Translations under genes and position numbers: made by a program
Part shown: piece after piece, positions 1 to 31,895 of the stretch
Layout of the letters: the number at the start of each line of letters is the position of its first letter
Position numbering within the stretch: the stretch's first letter is position 1
Notes under the pieces: generated by a model
The model's database searches: none
Seen by the model: only the letters and a program-made list of their open reading frames with translations
What the model was told of the DNA's origin: nothing
NCBI GenBank assembly: GCA_036382135.1
Contig: DASVIK010000095.1
Location: 1 to 32,191, forward strand
Direction of reading: 5' to 3'
DNA length: 32,191 bases
DNA from: Candidatus Limnocylindrales bacterium
Lineage (GTDB): Bacteria > Chloroflexota > Limnocylindria > Limnocylindrales > CSP1-4

Positions 1-330
1 CCGGAAGGCGGGCCGGTCGACGAACCCCGCGAGCTGTTCCTCAACCACCTCGGGACGGCCCTCGGGGCGCGCGGCCTGCGCTTCCGGCTCGAGCGACTCC
101 GGCGTCGGGCGGGCCTGCCGATCGGCGTCTCTCCGCACACGTTGCGCCACAGCTTCGCGACCCATCTGCTCGACGGCGGGGCGGACCTGCGCGTCGTCCA
201 GGAGCTGCTCGGGCACAGCAGCCTCGCGACGACCCAGATCTACACGCACGTCTCGCCGACACGCCTGCGGACCGCGTACCGGGCCGCCCATCCGCGGGCG
301 AGGGCGGGCTCGGGCGACCTGCCGGCGTGA
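1..330 (+). CDS. tyrosine recombinase, XerC/XerD family, C-terminal part (5-prime end cut by window edge)
   Basis: Frame 1 is open from base 1. The translation ...[41 protein letters not shown] carries the HxxR box and the LGH...Y catalytic tyrosine box of Xer/phage-integrase recombinases. Stop TGA 328-330 overlaps the next start (GTGA). Confidence 0.85.
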
Positions 331-5870: not shown

Positions 5871-6590
5871 GTGCGCGGCTGTCTCACCTGGTTCTTCGTC
5901 CTCCTCGCCGTCGTCCTCATCTGCGTCTGGTCCTTCGCCCCGGCCGTCGCCGGCGGGCTCGTGTCGGCCGGCCTGGGCACCGCCGGGTTCGAGAGCCGGG
6001 ACAAGCTGGTGACCGTGATCGCCGACCCGCCCATCGAGCTGCTGACGCTGCGCGCCGACAAGATCCGCATCCGGGCGACGGACGCGCGGTTCGCCGGGCT
6101 GCGCATCGCCGGCGTGGATCTCGTCCTCGGCGGTGTCGGCCTCGTGGGCCGGCAGGCCGATTCGGTCACGGGCACCCTGACCGGCGTGCAGGTCCCGAGC
6201 CCCCTCGGGACGACGGCGACGATCAGCTCGGTGGGCCTGAGCGGCCCGAGCTCCGACCTGCGAGCCATCCTCACCTTCACGGCCAAGGACATCCAGGCCC
6301 TGGCGAGCGCGGCCGTCGAGGGCCAGATGGGCTCGATCCCGACGAAGGTCATCCTCGCGGCCCCGGACAAGGTGAACGTCATCGCGTCGGGGATCAGCGT
6401 GCGTGGCCGCCTCGCGGTGGACGGCGCCGGCGGGCTCGTCCTCATCACGACGTCGCCGCCCGGGTTCAGCGGGCCCATCGACATCATCCGGCCGGGTCCG
6501 ACCGAACCGCTCCGCCTGACGAGCGTCGTCCTGCGGCCCAACGGCGCGACGATCACGGCGACCGTCGACCCGTCGTTCTTCGGCGGCTGA
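5871..6590 (+). CDS. membrane-anchored protein, DUF2993/LmeA-like (239 aa)
   Basis: AGGGAG lies 7 nt upstream of GTG 5871. N-terminal TM helix LTWFFVLLAVVLICVWSF, followed by a repetitive beta-rich pattern (VTVIADPPIELLTLRADKIRIRATDARFAGLRIAGVDLVLGGV...). From memory this resembles the LmeA/DUF2993 lipid-binding family. Family assignment is tentative. Confidence 0.55.
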   Translation: MRGCLTWFFVLLAVVLICVWSFAPAVAGGLVSAGLGTAGFESRDKLVTVIADPPIELLTLRADKIRIRATDARFAGLRIAGVDLVLGGVGLVGRQADSVTGTLTGVQVPSPLGTTATISSVGLSGPSSDLRAILTFTAKDIQALASAAVEGQMGSIPTKVILAAPDKVNVIASGISVRGRLAVDGAGGLVLITTSPPGFSGPIDIIRPGPTEPLRLTSVVLRPNGATITATVDPSFFGG

Positions 6591-6593
6591 GGC

Positions 6594-6599
6594 TATCCT
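6594..6599 (+). promoter_or_regulatory. putative -10 box TATCCT, 8 nt before the rel ATG (leaderless signature)
   Basis: A TANNNT hexamer sits 8 nt upstream of ATG 6608, and no SD lies between them. Confidence 0.35.
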
Positions 6600-6607
6600 T
6601 GGCGCCC

Positions 6608-8884: not shown

Positions 8885-8921
8885 GACGGGGGAGGGGGAT
8901 GCGCACCGAAGCGCGGTTGCG

Positions 8922-9119
8922 TGCAGATACAACCCGGGGTAGTGCTATCCGCTCGGACCGGGCGTCTTGTTGCAGATACCACGGTGGGTGATGTTCGGGG
9001 CCTGGGCGATGCCCTGTGGGGCATAAGGCGGGCGGGCGGCGGATCGGTTCGTGCTCACGAAGCCCGGGGGTGGCCTTCCCATGGGCGCGCCAGCGGGACC
9101 TAGTACCACCGTGGGTGAT
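8922..9119 (+). repeat. three dispersed direct copies of a 16-19 nt motif in the rel-hisS spacer
   Basis: TGCAGATAC occurs at 8922-8930 and 8971-8979. TACCACGGTGGGTGAT (8977-8992) matches TACCACCGTGGGTGAT (9104-9119) at 15/16 positions. Copy A (8922-8940) matches copy B (8971-8989) at 15/19 positions. Confidence 0.7.
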
Positions 9120-9244
9120 ATCTGGCACGAACGCGGCATACGACCGCGCGACGAACCCTCGGCGCGGCTCTCCGCCGGACGCCGGGCGTGGGCCTCAGGC
9201 GGTGGCGCGGAGCAGAGCCAGGGCCCGGGCCCGGGAGCTGCCGC

Positions 9245-9250
9245 TAGACT
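9245..9250 (+). promoter_or_regulatory. putative -10 box TAGACT, 7 nt before the hisS ATG (leaderless signature)
   Basis: A TANNNT hexamer sits 7 nt upstream of ATG 9258, with no SD. Confidence 0.35.
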
Positions 9251-9257
9251 GCGCGGC

Positions 9258-10559
9258 ATGCCCCAGTTCCGAGCACCGCGCGGGATGCGCGACCTCCTGC
9301 CCCCCGAGCGGGCCGCCTACGCCCGCCTCGAGCGGATCGCCCGCGAGCTCGGCGTGCGCTACGGGTACCGCGAGATGGAGACGCCGCTGTTCGAACTGAG
9401 CGCGGTGTTCGAGCGGGGCATCGGCGAGGTCACCGACGTCGTCGAGAAGGAGCTGTTCCGGCTCCAGCAACGGACCGAGGAGAGCGAAGCGTGGGCCCTC
9501 CGCCCGGAGGCGACGGCCGGGATCGTGCGCGCCTACCTCCAGCACGGGATGCACACCTGGCCATCACCGGTGAAGCTCGCGCTCACCGGTCCGATGTTCC
9601 GCTACGACCGGCCCCAGGCCGGCCGCTTCCGCCAGTTCTGGCAGTGGGACGTTGAGGCGATCGGCGATGCGGGCCCGGCCGTGGACGCGGAGCTCATCGA
9701 GCTCGGCGCCCGGTTCTACCGCGAGGCCGGCCTCGCCGATGTCGAGGTCCGCCTCAACTCGATCGGCGATCCGGCCTGCCGGCCCGCCTACATCGCGCTT
9801 CTCCGCGCCCACTTCGAAGCCGCCGCCGATCGGCTGCCGACGCTCGAGCGCCGGCGCCTCGACACGAACCCGCTGCGCCTCCTGGATTCGAAGGACCCGG
9901 CGATGAAGGCGCTCAACGAGAGCGCGCCGCGGATCACGGATCACCTGTGCGGACCGTGTGCCGACCACTTCGCGGCGGTGCGAGCCCACCTCGATGGAGT
10001 CGGCATCGCCTACCGGATCGAGGCCACGCTCGTGCGGGGTCTGGACTACTACACGCGGACGGCCTTCGAGTACTACCCGCGCGGCGCCGAGGGCCAGCAA
10101 TCGGCGCTGGGTGGGGGAGGGCGGTATGACGGCCTCGTCGAGCTGCTCGGCGGGCGACCGACGCCGGGGATCGGCTTCGCGCTCGGGCTGGACCGGGTCG
10201 TGCTCGCCCTCGAGACCGCGTCGGTGCTCCAGGCGCCCGACCCCGGCCCGCTTGCCGTCGTCGTAGGCGCGGATCCCGGGGCGACGGCGGAGCGGCTCCG
10301 CGTGGTCACGATGCTCCGGGCAGAGGGCGTGCGGGCGCGGGCGGACCTCGGCGTGCGCAAGCTCGGGCGCCAGCTCGAGGGCGCGTCACGCGACGGGGCG
10401 CATTTCGCGGTCATCCTGGGCGACGAGCTGGCCGAGGGCGATGTCCAGCTGCGGGACCTCCAGGCGGGCACGCAGCGGCCGGTACCCCTCGCTGACCTGG
10501 TCCGTGAGCTGCGCCGCGCGGACGCCGGCCATCGGCACGGCGAGGCCGCCCAGTCCTAG
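9258..10559 (+). CDS. hisS: histidine--tRNA ligase (433 aa)
   Basis: N-terminus MPQFRAPRGMRDLLPPE, class II motifs FRYDRPQAGRFRQFWQ and GGGGRYDGL. ATG 9258 is in frame with ORF 9051-10559. Confidence 0.95.
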   Translation: MPQFRAPRGMRDLLPPERAAYARLERIARELGVRYGYREMETPLFELSAVFERGIGEVTDVVEKELFRLQQRTEESEAWALRPEATAGIVRAYLQHGMHTWPSPVKLALTGPMFRYDRPQAGRFRQFWQWDVEAIGDAGPAVDAELIELGARFYREAGLADVEVRLNSIGDPACRPAYIALLRAHFEAAADRLPTLERRRLDTNPLRLLDSKDPAMKALNESAPRITDHLCGPCADHFAAVRAHLDGVGIAYRIEATLVRGLDYYTRTAFEYYPRGAEGQQSALGGGGRYDGLVELLGGRPTPGIGFALGLDRVVLALETASVLQAPDPGPLAVVVGADPGATAERLRVVTMLRAEGVRARADLGVRKLGRQLEGASRDGAHFAVILGDELAEGDVQLRDLQAGTQRPVPLADLVRELRRADAGHRHGEAAQS

Positions 10560-10580
10560 GCCGGCGGCGCGCCGCGATGC

Positions 10581-10958
10581 TCAGTCGAACTGGATGAGCC
10601 CGACCATGTTCCCCGCGGGGTCGAAGAACCACGCGCCCCTGCCGGCGCCGGTCGTGGCGATGCTGCCCTCGGTCCTGAAGCCCGGAGCGTCGTATTCCTC
10701 GAAGACGACCCCACGCCGCTTGAGATCGGCGACTTCGGCCTCGATGTCCGCCACCGTGAACCCGATCTGCGTGTGCGTGCCGGCCGATTTGCCGGAGCTC
10801 TTCGTCACCGCGAACTTCGAGCCCTCCCCGGCCTCGTACATCACGCCCGCATCGTTCGGCTGGTACGGCTTGAAGCCGAGCGTCCCTTCGTAGAACCCGC
10901 GCGCCGCCTCGAGATCCGAGACGGGGAGCGTGGCGTGGCAGCGGCTCGCTGAGAGCAT
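10581..10958 (-). CDS. VOC (glyoxalase/bleomycin-resistance/dioxygenase) family protein (125 aa; alternative start at 10970)
   Basis: Translation ...HATLPVSDLEAARGFYEGTLGFKP...THTQIGFTVADIEAEVADLKRRGVVFEE...GAWFFDPAGNMVGLIQ is a typical single-module VOC fold. The internal ATG at 10958 is preceded by GGAGG with a 5-nt spacer, so it is preferred over ATG 10970. Confidence 0.75.
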   Translation of the reverse strand: MLSASRCHATLPVSDLEAARGFYEGTLGFKPYQPNDAGVMYEAGEGSKFAVTKSSGKSAGTHTQIGFTVADIEAEVADLKRRGVVFEEYDAPGFRTEGSIATTGAGRGAWFFDPAGNMVGLIQFD

Positions 10959-11027
10959 CGGGGCCTCCATTCATCGTCGGTGCGTTCGTGGCCGGCCACC
11001 CCGCTGTCAGGGGATCGGCGCCTTCGT

Positions 11028-11033
11028 TACGAT
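11028..11033 (+). promoter_or_regulatory. putative -10 box TACGAT, 9 nt before the aspS ATG
   Basis: A TANNNT hexamer sits 9 nt upstream of ATG 11043, with no SD. The spacing is at the long end for a leaderless start. Confidence 0.3.
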
Positions 11034-11042
11034 ACGACGACG

Positions 11043-12911
11043 ATGACCGACCCCGGCCCCAGCCTCGCAACCCCCTATCGCACCCATACGTGCGGGCAAT
11101 TGCGCGCCGGCGATGCCGGCTCCTCCGCTCGCCTGGCGGGCTGGGTCCACCGGCGACGCGACCACGGGCACCTCATCTTCCTGGACCTGCGCGATCGCCA
11201 CGGGCTCACCCAGGTGATCGTGGACGAGGAATCCGCCCCGGCGGCCCACGAGGTCGCCAGCCGGGTGCGGTCCGAATTCGTGATCAATGTCTCGGGCGAA
11301 GTCGCCGCGCGCCTGGCCGGCACGGAGAACGCGAAGCTGGCGACCGGGGCGATCGAGCTTCGCGCCTCGGACGTGGAGATCCTGTCCGAGGCGAAGACGC
11401 CGCCGTTCTACATCAACGAGCCCGACGCCACGATCGACGAGACCGTCCGCCTGCGCTACCGCTACCTCGACCTGCGCCGTGAGCCGATGCAGCGCCGCCT
11501 GCTCCTGCGCAGCACGCTCGTGCAGGCCATCCGGGACGTCCACCACGCGAACGGCTTCGTCGAGATCGAGACGCCGAACCTCATCAAGTCCACCCCGGAG
11601 GGCGCCCGCGACTTCATCGTGCCCTCGCGGCTCCAGCCGGGCACCGTCTACGCGCTCCCGCAGAGCCCGCAGCAGCTCAAGCAGTTGCTCATGGTGGCCG
11701 GGATGGACCGCTACTTCCAGATCGCCCGGTGCTACCGCGACGAGGACCTGCGCGGCGATCGGCAGCCGGAGTTCACCCAGCTCGACCTCGAGATGAGCTT
11801 CGTCACCGAGGACGCGGTGATGGACTTCGTCGAGCGGATGGTCATCGAGGTGACCCGGGCCACGGTCCCCGACCGGCCGATCCGCGAAGTGCCGTTCCCG
11901 CGCTTCACGTACGCCGAGGCGATCGAGCGCTTCGGTTCGGACAAGCCGGACCTGCGCTTCGCGATGGAGCTCGTGGACCTCGGCCCCGCCCTCACGGATC
12001 CCGCGGGGAGCCCGGCGAGCGGCTTCCGCGTCTTCGACGACACGCTCGGCACGGGCGGCCGGGTAAAGGGCCTCGCCGTCCCGGGCCGGGCGGACGCCAG
12101 CCGACGGGAGATCGACGAGCTGACCGAGACCGCCCGCCGGTTCGGCGCCAAGGGGCTCGTCCACCTCGCGGTCCAGCCCGGCGGCGAGCTCCACGGTCCC
12201 GTCGCCAAGTTCCTGTCGGACGACGTGCAGCGAGCCGTCCTCGAGCGGAGCGGTGCGAACGCCGGTGACCTCCTGCTCATCGTGGCCGACGCCCCCGCCG
12301 TCACCGCCGACGTGCTGGGCCGGCTGCGGGCCGAGCTCGGGTCCCGCCTCGGCCTCGGCGACCCCGCCGAGCTCGCCTACTGCTGGGTCCACCGCTTCCC
12401 CATGTACCAGTGGGATGCCGAGAACGGGCGCTGGGACGCGACCCACAACCCGTTCAGTGGAGTCGTCCCGGAGGACCGCCCGCTCCTGGCGACGCTCTCC
12501 GGCGATCCGGCACGACCGTCGCCGGACGACCCGGCCGGCCGCGCCCGGGCGATGCAATACGACATCGCGCTCAACGGCTGGGAGCTCGGCGGCGGTTCCG
12601 TGCGCATCCACCGGCGCGACCTGCTCGAGCTGAGCTTCGCCCTCCAGGGCCAGACCCTCGACGGGATGCGTTCGAAATTCGGGGCGATCCTGGATGCGTT
12701 CGAATACGGTGCACCGCCGCACGGCGGCATCGCCCTGGGCATCGATCGATGGGCCGCTCTGTTCACGGATCAGGCCACGATCCGCGAGGTGATGGCGTTC
12801 CCGAAGACCCAATCCGGCTCGGACCTCATGCTCGAGGCGCCGTCCGCCCCGGACCCGACGCAGTACGCTGAGCTCGGCCTGCGCTTCGTCGGACCGCCGG
12901 GCAAGGCGTGA
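11043..12911 (+). CDS. aspS: aspartate--tRNA ligase (622 aa)
   Basis: Motifs YRTHTCGQLR, IFLDLRDRHGLTQVV, PQSPQQLKQLLMVAGMDRYFQIARCYRDEDLRGDRQPEFTQLD and PHGGIALGIDR. The start is ATG 11043, at residue 22 of the tracked ORF. Confidence 0.95.
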   Translation: MTDPGPSLATPYRTHTCGQLRAGDAGSSARLAGWVHRRRDHGHLIFLDLRDRHGLTQVIVDEESAPAAHEVASRVRSEFVINVSGEVAARLAGTENAKLATGAIELRASDVEILSEAKTPPFYINEPDATIDETVRLRYRYLDLRREPMQRRLLLRSTLVQAIRDVHHANGFVEIETPNLIKSTPEGARDFIVPSRLQPGTVYALPQSPQQLKQLLMVAGMDRYFQIARCYRDEDLRGDRQPEFTQLDLEMSFVTEDAVMDFVERMVIEVTRATVPDRPIREVPFPRFTYAEAIERFGSDKPDLRFAMELVDLGPALTDPAGSPASGFRVFDDTLGTGGRVKGLAVPGRADASRREIDELTETARRFGAKGLVHLAVQPGGELHGPVAKFLSDDVQRAVLERSGANAGDLLLIVADAPAVTADVLGRLRAELGSRLGLGDPAELAYCWVHRFPMYQWDAENGRWDATHNPFSGVVPEDRPLLATLSGDPARPSPDDPAGRARAMQYDIALNGWELGGGSVRIHRRDLLELSFALQGQTLDGMRSKFGAILDAFEYGAPPHGGIALGIDRWAALFTDQATIREVMAFPKTQSGSDLMLEAPSAPDPTQYAELGLRFVGPPGKA

Positions 12912-22108: not shown

Positions 22109-22399
22109 ATGGCGATCGGACCGGCCCCGCTCCTCGCCGCCCTCGTCGGGACGTTCTGCACCGCGCTCTTCATCTTCCTCCGCGGATCGGCCGGCGGTCG
22201 CGCGGTGGTTCTGCTCCTGGCGGCCATCCTCGGCGCATGGGCGGGCGATGCGGTGGGCGCCCGGCTCGGGATCGACCTGCTTCGTATCGGGGACTTCCGG
22301 CCAGTGACGGCGGTCCTCGTCGCCTGGGCCGGTCTCGGCATCGTGTCGGTCATCGCGATCCTGGGTCCTTCCCGGCGCGGGACCTCAGAGCGGAGGTGA
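22109..22399 (+). CDS. small hydrophobic membrane protein (96 aa, about 3 TM helices), no family recognised
   Basis: Third codon positions are almost all G/C, matching the neighbouring real genes. Three hydrophobic stretches: PLLAALVGTFCTALFIFL, VVLLLAAILGAWAG and VTAVLVAWAGLGIVSVIAIL. Confidence 0.5.
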   Translation: MAIGPAPLLAALVGTFCTALFIFLRGSAGGRAVVLLLAAILGAWAGDAVGARLGIDLLRIGDFRPVTAVLVAWAGLGIVSVIAILGPSRRGTSERR

Positions 22400-22690: not shown

Positions 22691-25453
22691 ATGCCGACCG
22701 CCGAAACCGCACGCGATCCACGGATCGTCAGCTTGCCCGCGTCCGAGATCCGCCGGCGGTTCGTGGAGTTCTTCGCCGAGCGCGGGCACGCCATCGTCCC
22801 CTCGGCGAGCCTGGTACCGGCCGGCGACCAGACCCTGCTCTTCACGAACAGCGGGATGGTCCAGTTCAAGGAGGTCCTGACGGGGGCCGAGACGCGGAGC
22901 TACAAGCGGGCGGTCGACTACCAGCGGGTCCTGCGCGTGGCGGGCAAGCACAACGACTTCGAGGAAGTCGGCCGGACGACCCGCCATAACACGTTCTTCG
23001 AGATGCTCGGCAACTGGAGCTTCGGCGACTACTTCAAGCGCGAGGCCATCCAGTGGGCCTGGGATTTCCTGACCCGCGACCTCGCCATCCCGCCCGAGCG
23101 GCTCGCGGCGACGACCTACAAGGACGACGAGGTCGCCCGGGCGGTGTGGCGGGATGAGATCGGCCTGCCGCCGGAGCGAATGGCGATCTGGGGCGATGTC
23201 GACGCCGGCGACGACAACAACTTCTGGCGGATGGCGGACACGGGCCCGTGCGGGCCGTGCAGCGAGATCCATTTCGATCGAGGCGCACATCTGTCCGAAG
23301 GTCCGCATTGCGTGCCCGATCACTCCGAGAACTGCCCGCGCTGGCTCGAGATCTGGAACCTCGTGTTCATGGAGTACGACCAGCGGCCGGACGGTCGCGT
23401 GCCGCTTCCCTTCCAGAGCATCGACACCGGGATGAGCCTCGAGCGCCTGGCGAGCGTCCTCCAGCAGGTCCCGAGCAACTTCGACACGGACCTGTTCACG
23501 CCGATCCACGCCCGCATGCGGGAGCTCCTCGGCCATGACCCCGGCGCGTTCGAGGCGGAGCGGTTCAGCTACCAGGTCATCGCCGACCACGCCCGGGCGA
23601 TCACGTTCCTCATCGCCGACGGCGTGGTCCCCTCGAATGAGGGTCGCGGTTACGTCCTGCGCCGGATCGTCCGGCGTGCCGTCCGGCACGGACGCCTGCT
23701 CGGCCGTCGGGAGCCGTTCCTGGCGACGTTGGCCACCGTCGTCGTCGAGATCATGGGCGAGGCGTACCCGCTCCTCGTCGAGCGCGAGGCGGAGATCCTC
23801 GCCGTGATCGGGCGCGAGGAGGCCCAGTTCGCCCGGACCCTCGATTCCGGCACCGGACACCTCGAGGCGGCCCTGACGGGCCTGGCCACCACCGAGCGCA
23901 CGATCGGCCGGCGGGTCGACGCCCTGCCGGACGACGCTCCGGTGGTGCCCGGCGACATCGCGTTCCGGCTCCACGACACGTACGGCTTCCCGATCGATCT
24001 CACGATCGAGCTCGCGGCCGAGTACGGCGTGCGCGTCGACCGCGACGGGTTCGAAACGGCGATGGCTCACCAGCGCGAGCAGAGCAAATCCGGCAAGAAG
24101 GCCGAGCTGTCGAAGCACGCCGAGCTGACCTCGCTGTACGAGTCGATCCTGCGGCGCGTGGGCGACGTCCGGTTCCTCGGCTATGAGACAACGACGGCCG
24201 ACGGTCGCGTCGTCGCGATCCTCCGGGAGGGCACCGAGTACCAGGAGCTCACCGGCAACGCCGAGGTGGAGGTCGTCCTCGACGCGACGCCGTTCTACGC
24301 GGAGGGCGGCGGCCAGGTCGCCGACACAGGCGAGCTGCGCGAGGCGGGCGGGGGATCCGTGCTCGTGACCGTCGAGGACGTCCAGCGCCCCGTCGGTGCC
24401 CAGGGTGCCGGGCTCGTGGTCCATCGCGGCCGGCTCCACGGCCGGCTGCGGGTCGGCGAGACCGTGAGCACCGTCGTTGACGTGGAGCGGCGGGCCCGGA
24501 CGATGCGCAACCACACGGGCACCCACCTGCTCCATCGAGCCCTGCGCAACGTCGTGGGGGAGCGGGCGCGGCAGGCGGGCTCGCTCGTCACGCCCGACTA
24601 CCTGCGCTTCGACTTCCCGCTCGAGCGCGCCGTCACCTCCGACGAATTGCGGGCCATCGAGACGGAGGTCCGGCGCATCATCCGCGACGCGCGGACCGTC
24701 ACGCCGAGCGTGATGACGATGGAGGAGGCCGTCGCGGCCGGCGCCGATGCGTTCTTCGACGAGAAGTACGGCGAGCGCGTGCGCACCGTACGGGTCGAGG
24801 GCTACAGCCACGAGCTCTGCGGCGGCACTCATTGCTCCAACTCGGGCCAGATCGGGAGCTTCGTCATCACCGGCGAGCGGAGCATCGGCACCGGACAGCG
24901 TCGCATCGAGGCCCTCACCGGCGACGGGGCAGACGCCTGGCTCGCGACCCGCATGGAGACGCTGGAGCGGGCCGCCGAGGCGGTCGGCGCGCAGTCCGTC
25001 GAGGCGGTCCCCGAACGGATCGCCACACTCCAGGGCGAGCTGCGCGAGGCGAAGCGCCTCCTGAAAGCCGGCGGAGGGGGCGGCATCCCGCGCCCGGCCG
25101 AGCTGGCGGCGCTGGCCGTCGAGGCCGTGGCCGGGGTGCGCCTCGTCGCCTTCGCCGGCGCGTTCGCCTCGATCGATGCAGTCAAGGCCGCGGCGAAGGA
25201 CCTGCGAGGCGTCTTCCCGTCGGGTGTCATCGCGCTGGCGCTCGACGGCGACGAGCCGCAGCTCTTCGTGTCGGTCAGCGACGATCTCGTCGGCCGGGGC
25301 ATCGCCGCCGGCAAGCTCGTCCAGGCGGCTATCGCGGCGATCGACGGTCGAGGTGGCGGCAGTGCCGCGATGGCCCAGGGCAAGGGCACCAGACGCGACG
25401 GCGTCGCGGCCGCGCTGGCCTCGATCCGCGCCGCCCTCGAGGCCTCCGGCTAG
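22691..25453 (+). CDS. alaS: alanine--tRNA ligase (920 aa)
   Basis: Motifs FFAERGHAIVPSASLVP, LLFTNSGMVQFK, RHNTFFEMLGNWSFGDYFK and CGPCSEIHFD, editing-domain HTGTHLLH and CGGTHC, and a C-terminal DHHA1-type domain. Confidence 0.95.
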   Translation: MPTAETARDPRIVSLPASEIRRRFVEFFAERGHAIVPSASLVPAGDQTLLFTNSGMVQFKEVLTGAETRSYKRAVDYQRVLRVAGKHNDFEEVGRTTRHNTFFEMLGNWSFGDYFKREAIQWAWDFLTRDLAIPPERLAATTYKDDEVARAVWRDEIGLPPERMAIWGDVDAGDDNNFWRMADTGPCGPCSEIHFDRGAHLSEGPHCVPDHSENCPRWLEIWNLVFMEYDQRPDGRVPLPFQSIDTGMSLERLASVLQQVPSNFDTDLFTPIHARMRELLGHDPGAFEAERFSYQVIADHARAITFLIADGVVPSNEGRGYVLRRIVRRAVRHGRLLGRREPFLATLATVVVEIMGEAYPLLVEREAEILAVIGREEAQFARTLDSGTGHLEAALTGLATTERTIGRRVDALPDDAPVVPGDIAFRLHDTYGFPIDLTIELAAEYGVRVDRDGFETAMAHQREQSKSGKKAELSKHAELTSLYESILRRVGDVRFLGYETTTADGRVVAILREGTEYQELTGNAEVEVVLDATPFYAEGGGQVADTGELREAGGGSVLVTVEDVQRPVGAQGAGLVVHRGRLHGRLRVGETVSTVVDVERRARTMRNHTGTHLLHRALRNVVGERARQAGSLVTPDYLRFDFPLERAVTSDELRAIETEVRRIIRDARTVTPSVMTMEEAVAAGADAFFDEKYGERVRTVRVEGYSHELCGGTHCSNSGQIGSFVITGERSIGTGQRRIEALTGDGADAWLATRMETLERAAEAVGAQSVEAVPERIATLQGELREAKRLLKAGGGGGIPRPAELAALAVEAVAGVRLVAFAGAFASIDAVKAAAKDLRGVFPSGVIALALDGDEPQLFVSVSDDLVGRGIAAGKLVQAAIAAIDGRGGGSAAMAQGKGTRRDGVAAALASIRAALEASG

Positions 25454-26716
25454 ATGGCCTTCCTGCGCCGGATCTGGCAGCGCGACGGTCGATCGGCGCT
25501 GGCGGCATGCACGGCGCTCGACATCGGGACCGAGTTCGCCAAGGCGCTCGTCTTCGAGATCGACGACGACGGCCACGGCACGATCCGCGGTGTCGGTCGC
25601 AAGCGCCAGGGCTTGTCGCACATGCAGTCGGGCACCGTGGCCGACATCGCCGCGGTGGTCGACAATTGCTCGGTGGCGCTCCAGGAAGCCGAGGAGATGG
25701 CCGGGTTCCGGCCGACCCAGGTGGTGATCGGCATCGCGGGCGAGCTCGTCAAGGGCTTCACGACGACCCACAACCAGGAACGCAAGAAGCCCGATACCGA
25801 GATCACCGAGGCCGAGCTCCAGCGGCTCATCGACGGCGTCCAGCGGGAGGCGCTGCGCGAGGCCGAGCGGGCCATCACCTGGGAGACGGGGCTGCCGCAG
25901 GTCGACGTCCGGCTCGTCCACGCCGCCATCACGGCGGCGAGCATCGATGGGTACGCGCTGACGAACCCGGTCGGCTTCAAGGGCCGCCACGTGACGATCA
26001 GCATCTTCAACGCGTTCGCGCCACTCGTGCATCTGGGGGCGCTCCACAGCGTCGCGAGCCAGCTCGACCTGGAGCTGCTCGAGGTGGTCGCCGAGCCGTA
26101 CGCGGTCGCGCGCGTCCTGGGCGTCGACCAGGTCCGTCAGGCCGGGGCGATCTTCATCGACGTCGGCGGCGGCACGACCGACGTCGCCCTCGTCCGCCAG
26201 GGCGGGATCGAGGGCACCCGGATGTTCGCGCTCGGCGGGCGAGCGTTCACGAAATCGCTGGCCGATCGCCTCGACCTGCCGTTCCCGCGAGCGGAGGCCC
26301 TCAAGGTCGATTACGCCCGCGGCATCGAGGTGCCCGACCGGGCCGAGGTCGCGGCCGTCATCGCCGACGATGTCACGGTCTGGGCGGCCGGCGTGGAGCT
26401 CGTGATCGAGGAGCTCGCGGCCGGGGAGCCGCTCCCGTCGCGCATCCACCTCTGCGGCGGCGGCTCGCGCCTGCCGGAGATCCGCGCGGCACTCGCCGCC
26501 GAGCGGTTCTGGAAGCGCCTGCCGTTCAGCCGGCCGACCGAGGTCACGATCATGGCGCCGGACCAGGTCTCGGCGATCACCGATGCCACCAACCTGCTCG
26601 TCGACCAGCAGGACGTGACGCCGCTCGGCCTGGCCTACCAGGCCATCGAGCACCAGGCCGAGGAGGACCCGCTCGACGCGGCCCTCCGGCGCGTCCTCCG
26701 GGCGATGAAGGTCTAG
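25454..26716 (+). CDS. FtsA/PilM-branch actin-fold (ASKHA) ATPase, non-dcw location (420 aa)
   Basis: The ATG follows directly after the alaS TAG. Phosphate-1 ALDIGTEF, phosphate-2 IFIDVGGGTTDVALV, adenosine motif IHLCGGGSRLPEI. FtsA-like middle region SGTVADIAAVVDNCSVALQEAEEMAGFRPTQVVIGIAG ... ASIDGYALTNPVGFKGRHVTISIFNAF ... LELLEVVAEPYAVARVL. C-terminal amphipathic-looking LDAALRRVLRAMKV. Confidence 0.85.
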   Translation: MAFLRRIWQRDGRSALAACTALDIGTEFAKALVFEIDDDGHGTIRGVGRKRQGLSHMQSGTVADIAAVVDNCSVALQEAEEMAGFRPTQVVIGIAGELVKGFTTTHNQERKKPDTEITEAELQRLIDGVQREALREAERAITWETGLPQVDVRLVHAAITAASIDGYALTNPVGFKGRHVTISIFNAFAPLVHLGALHSVASQLDLELLEVVAEPYAVARVLGVDQVRQAGAIFIDVGGGTTDVALVRQGGIEGTRMFALGGRAFTKSLADRLDLPFPRAEALKVDYARGIEVPDRAEVAAVIADDVTVWAAGVELVIEELAAGEPLPSRIHLCGGGSRLPEIRAALAAERFWKRLPFSRPTEVTIMAPDQVSAITDATNLLVDQQDVTPLGLAYQAIEHQAEEDPLDAALRRVLRAMKV

Positions 26717-26718
26717 CC

Positions 26719-28575
26719 GTGGCCGGCCCGATCAGCTTCATCTTCCTGGACGTCGACGACGAGATCACGTCAGCCGCGAATCGGATCCGGCACGTGACGG
26801 AGATGCGGGTCGCGCTCGTCCTGCCGGCCGGCTCGCGCCTGGCCACGTCCCGGATCAACTTCCGGCTCCTCGCCCGGGAGGCGCAGGCCCACGCCCACGA
26901 CTTGTACATCGTCGCGCCCGAGGCGGCGGCCCGCGCCCTGGCGGCGTCGGCGGGAATGGCCGTCTATGCGACGGTGCGGGAGCTCGAAGACGCGATGGAG
27001 GGCGCCGGGGCGGCCGAGCCGGGAGGGACCGCGCTTGCCTCCCCGGGCGTCGTCGCGGTGCTCCCGGACCCGGGACCCGTACCGCGGCGGCGCGACATGG
27101 CCCGCCCCGCCGGCGAGCGGTCCGTGCCGCCATACGAAGCTCCGGCCGGTTCCGGAGCGGGGGATCGGGGCGGCTCCGACGAGCGCCGCGGCAGCCTCGC
27201 CGGGCGCAGCGCGGCCGCGGACCTGCCCGTCGTCCCCGGTGTCCGAGGCCGCGCGGGCCACCGGCGAGCCTGGCTCGGCGTCCTTGCGGTGATCGTCGTC
27301 GTCGCATTCATCGGCGGCTTCGCGGGCGCTCAGTACCTGCCGGCGGCGACGATCGTCGTCACGCCCCGGGTCGAGACGATCGGCCCGCAGACGTTCAGCG
27401 TCACGGCCGATCCGACCGTCGGCGCTCCGGACCTGGCGGCCGGCATCGTCCCGGCGACCCAGCCGACGATCCCACTGGACGCTTCCGGCACCTACCCTGC
27501 GACCGGCACGAAGGTGACCGAGACGAAGGCCACCGGAGTTGTGCGGTACACGAGCTACGACACCGGGGCGAACACCGACATTCCATCGGGCTCCCTGGTA
27601 TCGACGACCGATGGGATCGAGTTCGTGACCCAGCGGGACCTGCATCTCGGCTTCGCGCCTATCGGCGGCTCCGTGTCCGCCGACATCCCCGTGACGGCAC
27701 GGAAGCCCGGCGTGATCGGGAATGTCGCCGCCGGGACGATCACGGTGATCGAGGCCTATCCGAAGCAGGTGCTCGGGATCCTGAAGGTCACGAACAAGGC
27801 GGTCACGACCGGCGGAACCCACGTCGTGATCCTCATCGTGAGCCAGAAGGACCTCGACAAGGCGCTGGCCGACCTCAACAGTCAGCTCGACAACGAGTTC
27901 GACCAGGTCATGACCGAACCGGGCCAGATCCTGCCCGACGTGACGGTCTTCCCGGAGACGAAGGCGCGCACCCCCGCCGTCCTGTCTCCCGACCCCAAGA
28001 CGCTTCTCGGCGATCAGGCCAAGTCCTTCTCACTCGCCGCGTCCGCGACCGGCCAGGTCACCGCGGTCGACGAGGCGGCGGTCTCGGCGCTCGCGACGGA
28101 CCGGCTCCGGGCGTCGGTGGCCGCGGGTCACGACCTCGTGAAGGATTCGCTGGTGGTGACCGTCGGCCCGGGTAAGGCCCAGGGCGCGGACATCGTCTTC
28201 TCGGTGAAGGCGACCGCACAGCAGGTCCGGCGGGTCGTCGCGGCCGATCTCCGCGAGGCGATCCGGGGCCGGCCGCTGGTCGAGGCGCGGACGACGCTCG
28301 AGGCCTACGGCACCACGACGATCGACCTGTGGCCGGGGTTCGTGTCGACGATCCCGAACTACGACTTCCGGATCGATCTCACGGTCCGCGACGAGGTCCC
28401 CGTCGAGAGCGCGGGGCCCGGTCCGGGATCGTCCGGAGCCTCCGCGTCTCCGTCCCCGTCGGCCAGCGCGTCGTCAGGACCCTCGGCCGGCGGGTCGTCG
28501 AAACCGGCCGCGAGCGGATCCGCGAAACCGTCCCCCGCCGGATCGGCCAAGGCGTCCCCGAGCGCTGCGCCATGA
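26719..28575 (+). CDS. bitopic membrane protein (618 aa): cytoplasmic N-domain, linker, TM helix, beta-rich ectodomain (baseplate-J/gp47-like segment), S/A/P-rich tail
   Basis: GTG 26719 lies 2 nt after the previous stop, with GAAGG 7 nt upstream. The single TM helix AWLGVLAVIVVVAFIGGFAGAQYL is at about 27268-27339. The ectodomain segment ATGVVRYTSYDTGANTDIPSGSLVSTTDGIEFVTQRDLHL...IPVTARKPGVIGNVAAGTITVI...VTNKAVTTGG resembles, from memory, non-phage proteins annotated baseplate J/gp47 family. Stop overlaps the ruvX ATG (ATGA). Confidence 0.8.
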   Translation: MAGPISFIFLDVDDEITSAANRIRHVTEMRVALVLPAGSRLATSRINFRLLAREAQAHAHDLYIVAPEAAARALAASAGMAVYATVRELEDAMEGAGAAEPGGTALASPGVVAVLPDPGPVPRRRDMARPAGERSVPPYEAPAGSGAGDRGGSDERRGSLAGRSAAADLPVVPGVRGRAGHRRAWLGVLAVIVVVAFIGGFAGAQYLPAATIVVTPRVETIGPQTFSVTADPTVGAPDLAAGIVPATQPTIPLDASGTYPATGTKVTETKATGVVRYTSYDTGANTDIPSGSLVSTTDGIEFVTQRDLHLGFAPIGGSVSADIPVTARKPGVIGNVAAGTITVIEAYPKQVLGILKVTNKAVTTGGTHVVILIVSQKDLDKALADLNSQLDNEFDQVMTEPGQILPDVTVFPETKARTPAVLSPDPKTLLGDQAKSFSLAASATGQVTAVDEAAVSALATDRLRASVAAGHDLVKDSLVVTVGPGKAQGADIVFSVKATAQQVRRVVAADLREAIRGRPLVEARTTLEAYGTTTIDLWPGFVSTIPNYDFRIDLTVRDEVPVESAGPGPGSSGASASPSPSASASSGPSAGGSSKPAASGSAKPSPAGSAKASPSAAP

Positions 28576-29087
28576 GCCGGCTGCTCGGCATCGATCTTGG
28601 GGAGCGCCGGATCGGCCTGGCGCTCGCCGATCGGGACGGCTCGGCGGCCCGCCCGCTCGCCACCGTCCGACGCGCCCGCCACATCGCCGGGGACGTGGCT
28701 GCCCTGGCCCGCGTCATCGCCGAGCAGGCAGTCGACGAGATCGTCGTTGGCCTGCCCCTCGAGGCCTCGGGAGCGGACGGACCGCAGGCCCGGCTCACCC
28801 GGACGTGGGCGGATGCCGTCGCCGCGACGCTCGACGTCCGGATGGCGTACCGTGACGAGCGCCTGACCAGTCACCTCGCCGAGCAGCGCCTCGGCCCGAT
28901 GCCACGCGGCCGGTCGGGCGGTCCACCGACAGCTCACCAGCGCGATGTGTATCGCGCACGCGTGGACCGTGAGGCGGCCGCGATCATCCTGCAGGACGAG
29001 CTCGACGCCCGGGCGGCCGCCGCGGCCGGCTCGCTGGCAGCCCGCCCCGACCTGCCGGGCCAGCCGTCCGGAGGACATTCAGCGTGA
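28572..29087 (+). CDS. ruvX: Holliday-junction-resolvase-like nuclease RuvX/YqgF (171 aa)
   Basis: N-terminus MSRLLGIDLGERRIGLALADRDGSAARPL and DEIVVGLPLEASG..GPQA are canonical YqgF motifs. ATGA overlap upstream and GTGA overlap downstream. Confidence 0.9.
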   Translation: MSRLLGIDLGERRIGLALADRDGSAARPLATVRRARHIAGDVAALARVIAEQAVDEIVVGLPLEASGADGPQARLTRTWADAVAATLDVRMAYRDERLTSHLAEQRLGPMPRGRSGGPPTAHQRDVYRARVDREAAAIILQDELDARAAAAAGSLAARPDLPGQPSGGHSA

Positions 29088-30442
29088 CGATCCGAAGCGG
29101 CGGCTCGCCGCGTGGCGAGTACGAGGGGCCCGACGTCGCGCAGGCGCATCCCCTCGACGAAGAGGAATGGACCCCCGTCGCGCAGAGCACCCGCCGCGAC
29201 CCCCGCTCGTCGCGCGGCCGGAACCGCGGGGGCGGTGGGGTGTCGGGGCTCATTCGGTTCCTCATCTTCGCGCTGGTCATGGCCTCGGTCGTGATGGTCG
29301 CCCTCCTGACGATCCTGCGCCCCGTCCTCGCCGGGGCGATCGTGGGCTGGGCGTACGACAGCCCGAGCGCGCTCGGGCTTCCGTTCGTGAAGGAGCTCGT
29401 CCGGGAGGACCTGGGTACCCGACTCACGACCGCGCCGGGCACCGACGCCGCGCAGGTGGAGTTCGTCGTCGACCAGGGCGACACGGCGGCCGCGATCGCC
29501 ACCCGTCTGGAGGCCGCGGGGTTCCTCACCGACGCCCGGGCGTTCGTCTTCACGGCGATCGATCGCAACCTCGCCGACAAGCTCGAGACCGGCACCTTCA
29601 TCCTCCGCAAGAACATGACGCCCGACCAGCTCGTCACGGCTCTCCTCCAGGCCGCGGACCTGGCCATCGACCTGCCGTTCCGCGAGGGGCTCCGGCTCGA
29701 ACAGGTGGTCACCAAGCTCGAGACGTTGCCGGTGAAGATGGATCCCAATGCCTTCTACCAGCTCGTCAAGCATCCGACGGCGGCGATCTTCGCGGCCCAC
29801 CCGTGGCTCCAGCTGCCGAAGGGCGCCTCACTCGAAGGGTTCCTCGGACCGGCGGTCTACCACGTCCTGCCGGACATCACGCCCGAGCAGCTCGTGAACA
29901 AGATGCTCGACACGTTCTATCTCCAGGTAGGCCAGGCGCGCATCGACGTCCCCAAGAGCCGGGGGCTGAGCTTCTACCAGGTGATGACGCTCGCGTCGCT
30001 CGTCGAGCGGGAGGCCAAGCTCGACGCCGACCGGCCGCTCATCGCCGGCGTGTTCCAGAACCGGCTCAACCCGAGGCTCTTCCCGACCGGCCTGTTCCAG
30101 TCGGACGTGACGATCTTCTACATCCACGACACGCTCCAGCTGGCCAAGATCCCCGTGGGCCAGTGGACCCAGTACACGTTCTGGGCGCCGGTCAACGGTG
30201 CCCTCACCGGCGTCACGATCCCGGCCGCCCTGAAGGGCTACGACACCTACTCGAACAAGGGCCTCATGCCCGGGCCGATCTGCACGCCGACGCTCGCGTC
30301 GATCGACGCCGCGCTCGCGCCGAACACGAAGGCGGGATTCCTCTTCTTCGTGGCCAAGAACGACGGGTCGAATGGAACGGCGTTCGCGAAGACCCAGGCC
30401 GAGCACGACAGGAACGTCAAGAAGTACGGCGCCAAGAAGTGA
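29084..30442 (+). CDS. mltG: endolytic murein transglycosylase MltG/YceG-like (452 aa)
   Basis: GGAGGA (29070-29075) lies 8 nt upstream of GTG 29084. N-terminal TM helix LIRFLIFALVMASVVMVALL. YceG motifs FREGLRLEQV, MTLASLVEREAK, IAGVFQNRLN, LFQSDVTIFY and YDTYSNKGLMPGPICTP. Confidence 0.9.
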   Translation: MTIRSGGSPRGEYEGPDVAQAHPLDEEEWTPVAQSTRRDPRSSRGRNRGGGGVSGLIRFLIFALVMASVVMVALLTILRPVLAGAIVGWAYDSPSALGLPFVKELVREDLGTRLTTAPGTDAAQVEFVVDQGDTAAAIATRLEAAGFLTDARAFVFTAIDRNLADKLETGTFILRKNMTPDQLVTALLQAADLAIDLPFREGLRLEQVVTKLETLPVKMDPNAFYQLVKHPTAAIFAAHPWLQLPKGASLEGFLGPAVYHVLPDITPEQLVNKMLDTFYLQVGQARIDVPKSRGLSFYQVMTLASLVEREAKLDADRPLIAGVFQNRLNPRLFPTGLFQSDVTIFYIHDTLQLAKIPVGQWTQYTFWAPVNGALTGVTIPAALKGYDTYSNKGLMPGPICTPTLASIDAALAPNTKAGFLFFVAKNDGSNGTAFAKTQAEHDRNVKKYGAKK

Positions 30443-31653
30443 CCGCCACCGCGGTCGAGCCGGCCGACTTCGCGCCGGCGCCGACGGCGGCCGACAGGAC
30501 ACGCTGGGCCGAGGCGGATCGGGCGGCACGGCCGGCCCGACTCGCCCGGTTGCGGGAGCGATTCGCCGACGCGGGAATCGATGCCTACTTCGGCGTCCGG
30601 CCCGAGCACATCCGCTACCTCACGGGCTTCGCCCTGGACGACGGCGAGGAGAAGAACGCCGGCGTCTCCGGGCAGTTCCTCGTCGGTGGCGACGAGGTCG
30701 TCCTCTTCGCCGACAGCCGGTACACGATCCAGGCGGGCCGCCAGGCGCCGGACGTGCGGATCGAAGAGGTGTACGGCGACCTGCCGAGCCGCTGGCCGGA
30801 GCTCGTCGCGTCGCTCGGAGCGCGGCGCGTGGCCGTGGAGGCTGGCGTCGTCAGCAAGGCGACCTGGGACCGGCTCGCAACGGCCGCTCCGGACGTCGAC
30901 CTGGTCCCGATCGAGGGCTGGGTCGAAGCGGACCGGGCGATCAAGGAGCCGAGCGAGCTCGAGCGCATCGGCGCCGCGTGTGCCGTCGCCGACCGGGCGC
31001 TGGCCGGCCTGCTGCCGGCCATCCGGGTCGGACGCACGGAGCGGGAGATCGCGCTGGAACTCGAGTTCGCGATGCGGACCGGCGGCGCGGACGCCCTCGC
31101 CTTCGATGTCGCCTGCCTGTCCGGTCCGGAGGCGGCGCTGCCCCACGGCGGACCCGGTGATCGCCCGATCCGCGACCGTGCCGTCCTTCTGTTCGACTTC
31201 GGGGCGCAGGTCGCGGGCTATCGGAGCGACATGACTCGGACGCTCTTCGTCGGCGACCCGCAGGCCCGCGACCTGGCGGTGTATGAGCTCGTGGTCGCGG
31301 CCCAGGCGGCGTCGATCGCCGGGATCGAGGCCTCGGTCCGCGACGGGCGACCGATCTCCGGCCGGGCCGCCGATGCGCTGGCCCGCGACGTCATCGACGC
31401 GGCCGGTCACGGCGCCCACTTCGGCCACGGGACCGGCCACGGGATCGGCCTCGCGACCCACGAGCTGCCGTCGCTCGGCAAGCGGGCGGCGGATGCGCCG
31501 CTGCCGTCGCCCACGGTCTTCTCGGTGGAGCCCGGCGTCTACCTCGCCGACGAGACCGGGGTCCGGATCGAGGACCTCATCGCCTATGACGCGGCCGCGC
31601 GACGGGTCGAGCGCCTGACCCGATTCCCGCGCGAGGTGCTCGTCGTCGGCTGA
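30439..31653 (+). CDS. M24-family Xaa-Pro aminopeptidase/dipeptidase (404 aa, start moderately certain)
   Basis: Motifs LLFDFGAQVAGYRSDMTRT, HGTGHGIGLATHELP, VFSVEPGVYL and GVRIEDLI (pita-bread metal ligands). GTGA overlap with mltG. A Xaa-Pro peptidase directly upstream of efp is a common arrangement. Confidence 0.9.
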   Translation: MTATAVEPADFAPAPTAADRTRWAEADRAARPARLARLRERFADAGIDAYFGVRPEHIRYLTGFALDDGEEKNAGVSGQFLVGGDEVVLFADSRYTIQAGRQAPDVRIEEVYGDLPSRWPELVASLGARRVAVEAGVVSKATWDRLATAAPDVDLVPIEGWVEADRAIKEPSELERIGAACAVADRALAGLLPAIRVGRTEREIALELEFAMRTGGADALAFDVACLSGPEAALPHGGPGDRPIRDRAVLLFDFGAQVAGYRSDMTRTLFVGDPQARDLAVYELVVAAQAASIAGIEASVRDGRPISGRAADALARDVIDAAGHGAHFGHGTGHGIGLATHELPSLGKRAADAPLPSPTVFSVEPGVYLADETGVRIEDLIAYDAAARRVERLTRFPREVLVVG

Positions 31654-31677: not shown

Positions 31678-31895
31678 GATCCGCCTCCGTCTTCACCGGA
31701 TGAAGCCAACGGAACGAGCGAGCGCTCACCTGGTCGCCGGATCGTCGATCTTCGTCATGGGCTGAAGGATCCTCGTCCCATCCGGCGTCAGCTCTTCGCG
31801 AAGGAGCGTTTCCCTTCAATGGATGACGGGATCGTGCCGCCTCCCGGCGTCGAGGTCGGCTTGGCTCCACCGGGTGAAGGGTCCGGAGGCGGATC
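31678..31895. repeat. 218-bp element bounded by imperfect ~30-nt inverted repeats (MITE-like or structured RNA)
   Basis: Left arm GATCCGCCTCCGTCTTCACCGGATGAAGCC (31678-31707). The reverse complement of the right arm (31863-31895) is GATCCGCCTCCGGACCCTTCACCCGGTGGAGCC. The outer 12 nt are identical and the rest is about 80% matched with small indels. The interior is visibly less GC-rich. Confidence 0.6.

Follow-up and report, generated by a model that had tools for sequence, protein, structure and literature searches.

An FtsA-like ATPase gene and its bitopic neighbor in the alaS–ruvX–mltG string of Limnocylindria: a candidate transmembrane envelope scaffold

Results

Gene Arrangement at the Locus

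The 32,191-nt contig DASVIK010000095.1 of a metagenome-assembled Candidatus Limnocylindrales genome (class Candidatus Limnocylindria, Chloroflexota; G+C 66–75%), to which we refer in its full length as the window, carries two adjacent genes between alaS and ruvX, here named A and B. The first encodes a divergent actin-fold ATPase of the FtsA family and the second a membrane protein that crosses the cytoplasmic membrane once; both are followed by ruvX, mltG and a pepP/pepQ-like gene on the same strand (Table 1). The stop codon of alaS (TAG, 25451–25453) directly abuts the start codon of A (ATG, 25454). Farther downstream, stop and start codons overlap in the tetranucleotides ATGA for B and ruvX (28572–28575), GTGA for ruvX and mltG (29084–29087) and again GTGA for mltG and pepP (30439–30442). 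A consensus scan of the plus strand from 22691 to 31653 did not reveal any terminator-like site, and the first such hairpin after alaS follows about 140 nt 3′ of pepP, the last gene of the putative operon; both observations are weak evidence.

An original prediction, derived from the letters of the sequence alone, had placed the genes at these same positions. When re-read, its coordinates, start and stop junctions and overlaps were all correct, and every peptide that it had quoted from A (ALDIGTEF, IFIDVGGGTTDVALV, IHLCGGGSRLPEI, ASIDGYALTNPVGFKGRHVTISIFNAF, LELLEVVAEPYAVARVL and LDAALRRVLRAMKV) occurs in the translation. Its assignments of ruvX, mltG and the pepP-like gene agree with both Pfam and NCBIfam. 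For alaS, the identity was established via the counterparts in related loci, which match PF01411 (tRNA-synt_2c), PF07973 (tRNA_SAD) and PF02272 (DHHA1).

Table 1. Genes and protein features at the A–B locus. Positions refer to the window, aa to residues of the respective protein; pLDDT, predicted local distance difference test score of the AlphaFold2 model. Invariance in A was scored in an alignment of 40 relatives.
Feature	Position	Strand	Remarks
alaS, alanyl-tRNA synthetase, 920 aa	22691–25453	+	First gene of the conserved string
Gene A, divergent FtsA-family actin-fold ATPase, 420 aa	25454–26716	+	Stop codon TAG 26714–26716
A aa 2–11, N-terminal basic/aromatic amphipathic helix	25457–25486	+	AF[WL]RR[IFL]W..R; hydrophobic moment ~0.8
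A aa 22–28, phosphate-1 motif, LDIGTEF	25517–25537	+	L22, D23, G25, T26, E27 invariant
A aa 233–247, phosphate-2 motif, IFIDVGGGTTDVALV	26150–26194	+	D236, G238–G240, T241, T242, D243 invariant
A aa 331–343, adenosine-binding motif, IHLCGGGSRLPEI	26444–26482	+	C334, G335–G337, S338, R339, L340 invariant
A aa 407–420, C-terminal amphipathic helix, LDAALRRVLRAMKV	26672–26713	+	Behind a linker of ~7 aa
Gene B, bitopic membrane protein with cytoplasmic N-terminus, 618 aa	26719–28575	+	Start codon GTG 26719
B aa 1–97, cytoplasmic α/β domain, four β-α units	26719–27009	+	pLDDT ~95
B aa 98–181, disordered cytoplasmic tether	27010–27261	+	pLDDT <50; gappy, poorly conserved, variable length
B aa 186–208, single transmembrane helix	27274–27342	+	Hydropathy maximum LGVLAVIVVVAFIGGFAGA
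B aa 209–560, folded ectodomain, β-rich half followed by α/β modules	27343–28398	+	pLDDT mostly >90
B aa 269–367, baseplate-J-type β-barrel	27523–27819	+	PF04865; motifs GNVxxGxI ... NxxxTxGG
B aa 561–618, disordered Ser/Pro/Ala-rich C-terminal tail, extracytoplasmic	28399–28572	+	pLDDT <50; low complexity, variable length
ruvX, YqgF-type nuclease	28572–29087	+	PF03652 5.8e-29, TIGR00250
mltG, endolytic transglycosylase, YceG family	29084–30442	+	PF02618 2.5e-61; TIGR00247 136.3 bits (cutoff 103.4)
M24 Xaa-Pro peptidase, pepP/pepQ-like	30439–31653	+	PF00557, PF01321; last gene of the putative operon
Terminator-like hairpin	31791–31807	+	First on this strand after alaS; weak evidence

Synteny, Conservation and Distribution

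A census of gene neighborhoods, for which stretches of up to 22 kb were available from 83 related loci, gave the general picture of a fixed arrangement. In all of them, the members of the string alaS–A–B–ruvX–mltG–pepP that are present are colinear and lie on one strand. All six genes were found in 64 loci, and contig ends account for 17 of the 19 incomplete cases. Without exception, B lies 3′ of A in the loci examined, and alaS precedes A wherever the locus reaches that far. The approximate gap between A and B amounts to −1 nt in the median; of 80 loci, 73 have a gap of no more than 30 nt. The arrangement is unchanged in a second, deeper clade, the A proteins of which are 62–66% identical to that of the window. 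Because order and strand are conserved in each of the 83 loci, the pairing of A and B goes beyond chance, and the association of both genes with each other and with ruvX and mltG that had originally been proposed holds in both clades.

Real breaks of synteny are seen in two loci: in JAJYXX010000321.1 (locus L013) ruvX is missing and mltG follows directly after B, and in CAVUWY010000002.1 (L006) no pepP was found within 10 kb downstream. Insertions between A and B also occur. A contig from a long-read assembly (L090, ENA ERZ25039541 contig_61460) contains an IS30-like transposase (HTH_38 plus rve) and an HTH_31 gene at 7433–9696 and retains B downstream, at about 10517–12087, in a frameshifted reading. 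A member of the deeper clade with an A protein of about 63% identity (L089) has an extra open reading frame (ORF) of 229 aa without a Pfam match at 7460–8149.

Relatives of B number 1046 in a protein set clustered at 90% identity and 2098 clusters at 50% identity (E ≤ 1e-30), and those of A exceed 7000 at 90% clustering. In a genome collection in which each of 185,579 species is represented once, a relative of B is encoded in 523 stretches. The best 80 of these 523 are nearly all labeled Chloroflexi, Chloroflexota or Limnocylindr-, and the few other taxon labels among them are probably due to mis-binning. The A–B pair is limited to one bacterial class.

The two proteins differ greatly in their degree of conservation. 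Median identity to the window protein is 82% for A, 70% for AlaS and for PepP, 62% for RuvX, 49% for MltG and 39% for B, which is the least conserved product of the six genes. A surpasses AlaS in conservation in all 63 loci compared, with a mean Kimura distance of 0.23 as against 0.38 for AlaS, and its identity across the class ranges from 75 to 94%. A is evidently under very strong purifying selection. Constraint at this level is typical of polymer-forming cytoskeletal proteins. We conclude that the feature is real, strongly selected, class-wide and uncharacterized.

Family Placement of Protein A

The FtsA family was the best match of A among hidden Markov models (HMMs), solved structures and folds. 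The Pfam FtsA model PF14450 covers residues 234–358 with 52.4 bits (gathering cutoff 31.8), and the ftsA equivalog model TIGR01174 matches residues 20–290 only with 7e-32 and 110.9 bits, which is below its cutoff of 175.85. A second FtsA model, PRK09472, also remained below its threshold (score 57 versus 409). Models for PilM (PF11104, 15.9 versus 27 bits; TIGR01175, 25.3 versus 133), MreB, EutJ and Hsp70 are either far weaker than those for FtsA or confined to the phosphate-2 region, the part of A that is matched by FtsA, MreB, EutJ and Hsp70 models alike. The MreB models TIGR00904 (8e-6, 25.2 bits versus 365.75) and PRK13927 (2e-6) belong here, as do EutJ (residues 196–366, 1.1e-14) and dnaK (4e-4); PF06723 for MreB covers residues 195–268 only, i.e., 74 of its 327 profile positions, so that A does not qualify as a full-length MreB. 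By sequence, the closest solved structures are the FtsA proteins from Vibrio, Xenorhabdus and E. coli, and a Foldseek search returned FtsA and then PilM at the top. The AlphaFold2 model on which the latter search was based is poor (pLDDT 57), since the underlying alignment is shallow and all usable relatives are at least 83% identical, and it was used for the ranking of fold matches only. Taken together, profiles and structure matches agree with the original placement of A in the FtsA/PilM branch rather than with MreB or DnaK.

Within this branch, the position of A is less conventional. The SHS2_FTSA domain (PF02491), which forms subdomain 1C, scores below threshold on residues 104–141 (E = 0.12, 13.2 bits versus 25.4), and none of the 240 relatives listed carries it among its precomputed Pfam domains; the alignments of Vibrio and E. 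coli FtsA to A pass straight through this region. In tblastn comparisons, A shares 24.8% identity with E. coli FtsA (69 bits, residues 21–377) and likewise 24.8% with PilM from Anoxybacillus (75 bits, residues 18–397). The best tblastn match in the plasmid collection, at 96 bits, is a non-canonical FtsA-like protein of 711 aa from Acetoanaerobium. In view of the sub-cutoff TIGR01174 score and the equal identity of about 25% to FtsA and PilM, A appears from its sequence to form a branch of its own within the FtsA/PilM group and is not a demonstrable FtsA orthologue.

The Acetoanaerobium noterae gene, the best match of A outside the Chloroflexota in that collection, is located at 5956–8091 of the inspected locus (L087) on NZ_CP154629.1, a 2.6-Mb record that is filed as a plasmid and has a chromosome-like appearance. 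Its product is extended at the C-terminus by about 320 aa, in which segments ending in GDxVxI recur, and ftsZ is not adjacent.

Existing pipelines label A as 'cell division FtsA domain-containing protein', and the name of its family in IMG is 'cell division protein FtsA'; we presume that KO/COG-style pipelines do the same. As a consequence of the IMG name, genome-based statements on the divisome of the class may be based on a protein that does not pass the equivalog test.

Motifs and End Helices of Protein A

All three ATP-binding motifs of the actin fold are intact in A (Table 1), and residues ~277–325, which correspond to the 2B subdomain by which FtsA binds the C-terminal peptide of FtsZ, are its most variable part. 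Both ends of the protein are predicted to form amphipathic helices. The C-terminal one (LDxALRRVLRAMKV), which had been likened to the membrane-targeting helix of FtsA in the original prediction, is nearly unchanged in 55 loci and has a hydrophobic moment of 0.68, higher than the value of 0.57 that we obtained for the corresponding E. coli helix; a binding of this helix to lipid is predicted. The N-terminal helix is an additional conserved feature that the original prediction had not included. In both alignments F3, R5 and R6 do not vary, the set of 40 sequences has W8, Q9 and R10 as further invariant residues, and AlphaFold2 places a helix at residues 2–11 with low confidence. To our knowledge, canonical FtsA does not have an N-terminal amphipathic helix of this kind. 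An N-terminal amphipathic membrane anchor is a feature of MreB from Gram-negative bacteria, which the helix of A resembles.

Architecture of Protein B

The AlphaFold2 model of B has a mean pLDDT of 81 and is confident in the folded parts. A single hydrophobic segment, a net charge of +4 on its N-terminal and of 0 on its C-terminal side, and a modeled helix at residues 182–205 identify B as a single-pass membrane protein, in agreement with the original proposal; the charge bias places the N-terminus in the cytoplasm. The N-terminal cytoplasmic domain, a folded element that had gone unnoticed in the original prediction, just as the barrel described below, is the best-conserved part of the protein, with the motifs LDVDDEITSAA and GSRxATSRINFRLLAREA. 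Neither a Pfam family nor a helix-turn-helix was found in it, and fold searches returned weak matches only, to small Rossmann- and STAS-like domains. We regard this domain as a candidate docking domain for A. None of the NCBIfam models matches B, and outside the barrel there is no Pfam match in the ectodomain.

The barrel is of the type found in phage baseplate wedge proteins. PF04865 matches B with 40.1 bits (gathering cutoff 21.1) over profile positions 21–110 of 255, and phrog_6 (baseplate wedge subunit) covers the same stretch with 3.4e-15. The HMM match is to gp65 (9g8s_C). In Foldseek comparisons, the barrel aligns with wedge proteins of phiCD508 and Mu over about 100–112 columns with a root mean square deviation (rmsd) of 2.4–3.0 Å and up to 35% identity, the highest value being reached with the phiCD508 chain 9gb2_G (rmsd 2.6 Å); Mu gp47 superposes at 2.4–3.0 Å. 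Overall, good superposition is confined to about 100–115 columns (rmsd 2.4–5 Å). Longer alignments yield rmsd values of 27–48 Å and template modeling (TM) scores not above 0.25, and a likeness of the whole chains is therefore unsupported. Searches of the 2.9 million viral contigs of IMG/VR and of the plasmid collection did not return any relative of B.

Wider Genomic Context

Upstream of alaS, the window contains murJ, a FemAB-like gene, a Mur ligase gene, relA/spoT, hisS, aspS, typA, iscS, mnmA and a GDPD gene; downstream of the module, efp, xseAB and dxs are found in relatives. The context is one of housekeeping and cell wall genes and is not mobile. Scans of the window with PADLOC and against Rfam yielded neither a defence-system match nor a family, and a reading of the pair as a defence system was dropped on account of the PADLOC result. 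Within the literature library searched, neither a paper on the A–B pair nor useful information on cell division in Limnocylindria was retrieved. With no PADLOC match, no NCBIfam model for B and no publication found, neither gene falls into a characterized pathway, as had been surmised.

The alaS–ruvX–mltG string also exists without A and B. In Listeria the order is alaS–ireB–ruvX–DUF1292–dedA–mltG, from which it follows that the string is old and normally lacks an actin homologue; the statement to this effect in the original prediction is accordingly borne out for Listeria. In Listeria monocytogenes (NZ_LR134401.1, L092), an IreB-family regulatory phosphoprotein is encoded between alaS and ruvX, at 3920–4192. 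An mltG–aroE locus on the megaplasmid of Thermomicrobium roseum contains none of alaS, ruvX, A and B; as a single replicon, this is weak evidence that the A–B insertion is class-specific.

Several further observations concern the surroundings. A 96-aa hydrophobic ORF without a Pfam match lies just 5′ of alaS (22109–22399, plus strand), and small unassigned ORFs are present at the equivalent position in two related loci (L001 and L002). A cell wall cluster occupies positions 3–5867 (plus strand) and comprises murJ, the FemAB-family gene (1904–3112), an unassigned 351-aa ORF and the Mur ligase gene (4092–5867). The presence of the FemAB-type gene points to a peptidoglycan with interpeptide bridges in this Chloroflexota lineage. 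The gene for a RelA/SpoT-type (p)ppGpp synthetase/hydrolase at about 6650–8884 (plus strand), which was recognized from its translation, lies in the only clearly lower-G+C stretch (0.66–0.68 versus 0.70–0.75 elsewhere) and failed the filter for native genes based on G+C at third codon positions (GC3).

Discussion

A Putative Transmembrane Scaffold

B combines a folded cytoplasmic domain, a disordered tether, one transmembrane helix and an ectodomain, and therefore has the architecture of a cytoskeletal adaptor. It may well be, and this is the reading that we tentatively favor, that A and B make up a lineage-specific transmembrane scaffold of two proteins by which Limnocylindria organize envelope growth or division. 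A would bind ATP, attach to the inner face of the membrane via its amphipathic end helices and probably self-assemble. B would serve as its transmembrane adaptor: the cytoplasmic α/β domain on its flexible tether of about 85 aa would dock on A, and the ectodomain with barrel, α/β modules and Ser/Pro/Ala tail would reach into the wall. Presumably transcribed together with alaS, ruvX, mltG and pepP, the pair would most likely organize peptidoglycan growth or septation in a manner comparable to FtsA–FtsN, PilM–PilN and MreB–RodZ, each of which connects an actin-like protein in the cytoplasm with a machine outside it.

The original prediction had read the pair as a transmembrane module, co-translated with MltG, that may couple the state of a cytoplasmic polymer or ATPase to the termination of peptidoglycan strands, elongation or septation. 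The pairing itself, the FtsA/PilM branch, the topology of B and the uncharacterized status stand, by virtue of synteny, HMMs, topology analysis and searches, respectively. A functional link of A and B to MltG, for which operon membership is the sole argument, appears doubtful to us. An even more far-reaching proposal would make A a third membrane-bound bacterial actin cytoskeleton, i.e., a paralogue of FtsA distinct from MreB that polymerizes under the membrane and positions an oligomeric, baseplate-J-like array of B ectodomains, which in turn would control the termination of glycan strands by MltG. A and B would then be an alternative organizer of wall elongation or septation in a major soil and freshwater lineage; we consider this improbable.

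Several observations weigh against a scaffold. The conserved residues of the B ectodomain do not show a catalytic motif in the alignment. The end helices of A are near-invariant in the sequence itself, and docking of a peptide on a protein would fit this pattern as well, in place of lipid binding. Subdomain details of A are uncertain given the poor model. The location of mltG in the same operon may be a historical accident, as alaS–ruvX–mltG is an old string. A mirror-tree analysis with distance matrices from 41 loci, from which the housekeeping trend had been removed, gave a partial correlation of 0.25 between A and the N-terminal domain of B, no higher than for other gene pairs, and the test was judged uninformative. 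The highest residual correlations were those of the B ectodomain with MltG (0.50) and of the B N-terminal domain with MltG (0.42). These could reflect co-evolution or a shared fast evolution of envelope proteins.

Alternative Explanations

The main alternative, which we consider rather unlikely, is that A is the sole orthologous FtsA of Limnocylindria, which has moved out of the division and cell wall (dcw) cluster and still tethers FtsZ to the membrane, and that B is a lineage-specific accessory protein of the divisome like FtsN or DivIB. A and B would then belong to an ordinary divisome encoded at an unusual site and would not be a module in their own right. FtsA is indeed the best model, PDB and fold match of A, 420 aa and a C-terminal amphipathic helix are typical of FtsA, the IMG family bears its name, strong conservation is what one would expect of an essential gene present once, and neither the window nor the 83 loci revealed a second ftsA. 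Nor is there any FtsZ signature in these sequences, in which alaS and B are the neighbors of A. On the other hand, the match to the equivalog model remains well below the cutoff and ends at residue 290, SHS2_FTSA does not reach its threshold in A or appear in the lists for its relatives, and A resembles E. coli FtsA no more closely than it does a PilM and is most similar to the clostridial 711-aa protein. The N-terminal amphipathic helix, which canonical FtsA is not known to have, speaks against the idea as well. Furthermore, other Chloroflexota have ftsA beside ftsZ (PMC10608941), so that a canonical ftsA may well be present in Limnocylindria, too. Alternatively, A and B might be neighbors without partnership, with A being a chaperone-like (EutJ/Hsp70-like) or other cytoplasmic ATPase of the ASKHA type and B an independent wall or surface protein, the two genes simply sharing a stable housekeeping operon. 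The EutJ matches, the lack of a specific A–B co-evolution signal and the very different rates of evolution (82% versus 39% median identity) are in line with this. We nevertheless consider it quite improbable: the adjacency is invariant with near-zero spacing in two deep clades, the best-conserved part of B is cytoplasmic and would need a cytoplasmic ligand, and the amphipathic ends of A suggest proximity to the membrane.

It is also conceivable that the two proteins serve, in the style of PilM–PilN, as a platform in the inner membrane for a secretion device or surface appendage, to the extracellular structure of which the B ectodomain would contribute. PilM ranks among the top fold matches of A, the gene for an FtsA-like ATPase directly precedes that of a bitopic partner as in PilM–PilN, and the barrel is of the phage-tail type. 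However, both PilM models remain below threshold and genes for PilO, PilP, PilQ, pilin, secretin, an ATPase or tail proteins are absent within 10 kb in any locus inspected, which makes such a device highly improbable. That B, together with A, is what remains of a prophage or tailocin baseplate would be in accord with the Baseplate_J matches in Pfam and PHROG and with the name 'baseplate J/gp47 family protein' that B carries at NCBI and in existing pipelines. Yet the likeness is restricted to a barrel of about 100 aa with whole-chain TM scores of at most 0.25, other phage genes are missing, a housekeeping operon is the constant setting of the locus, and the 523 relatives in the genome collection stand against none in the viral contigs. 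Context, distribution and the lack of viral relatives effectively rule out a prophage origin.

Comparison with Known Systems

Limnocylindria (formerly Ellin6529) are a class of Chloroflexota that is abundant in soils and lakes and has hardly been brought into culture, and we know of no information on their cell biology. In this class, a tightly conserved A is invariably accompanied by a fast-evolving, wall-facing membrane protein in which a phage baseplate barrel is put to new use. The baseplate wedge protein J (Mu gp47, P2 gpJ, T4 gp6) shares a single barrel of about 100 aa with B, including the GNVxxGxI and NxxxxxGG motifs. In contrast to protein J, B is anchored in the membrane and has a cytoplasmic domain, and its gene occurs without nearby tail genes and without relatives in viral contigs. 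The slot between alaS and ruvX is shared with IreB in the string of Firmicutes, a protein that is unrelated to A or B, and the parallel is one of position only. IreB is a small soluble phosphoprotein that regulates cell wall homeostasis.

With FtsA–FtsN (PDB 7q6i), the pair shares an actin fold of the FtsA/PilM type, in which A appears to have an insertion where subdomain 1C is located in FtsA, intact ATP motifs, a length of about 420 aa and the C-terminal amphipathic helix. A differs from FtsA in that it falls below the TIGR01174 cutoff, does not contain SHS2_FTSA at threshold, is only about 25% identical to the E. coli protein, is not encoded beside ftsZ in the window or the 83 loci, possesses the extra N-terminal amphipathic helix, has a linker of only about 7 aa in front of its C-terminal helix and is more conserved than AlaS. 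B bears no resemblance to FtsN or FtsQ. PilM–PilN (PDB 2ych, 5eou) resembles A–B in that an FtsA-like gene directly precedes that of a bitopic partner whose N-terminus is cytoplasmic and conserved. The cytoplasmic part of B is, however, a folded 97-aa domain and not a short peptide as in PilN, the ectodomains are unrelated, A falls below the PilM thresholds, and in all loci inspected the neighbors are alaS, ruvX, mltG, pepP and efp and not pilN, pilO, pilP, pilQ or pilin genes.

The architecture of B is reminiscent of RodZ, with a folded cytoplasmic domain, a disordered juxtamembrane linker, one transmembrane helix and an extracytoplasmic domain; the analogy is one of architecture only, as the N-terminal domain of B is α/β and not helix-turn-helix. 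Further parallels to MreB–RodZ (PDB 2WUS) are the cytoskeleton-grade conservation of A, its N-terminal amphipathic helix as in Gram-negative MreB and the genomic association of the pair with MltG as a wall enzyme of elongation. Unlike MreB, A matches 74 of the 327 Pfam positions only and reaches 25 bits with TIGR00904, for which 366 are required. If A and B do form a scaffold, they would add a new type of partner to the small set of actin-like proteins with bitopic adaptors, FtsA–FtsN, PilM–PilN and MreB–RodZ, and would provide a handle on the organization of wall growth in monoderm Chloroflexota.

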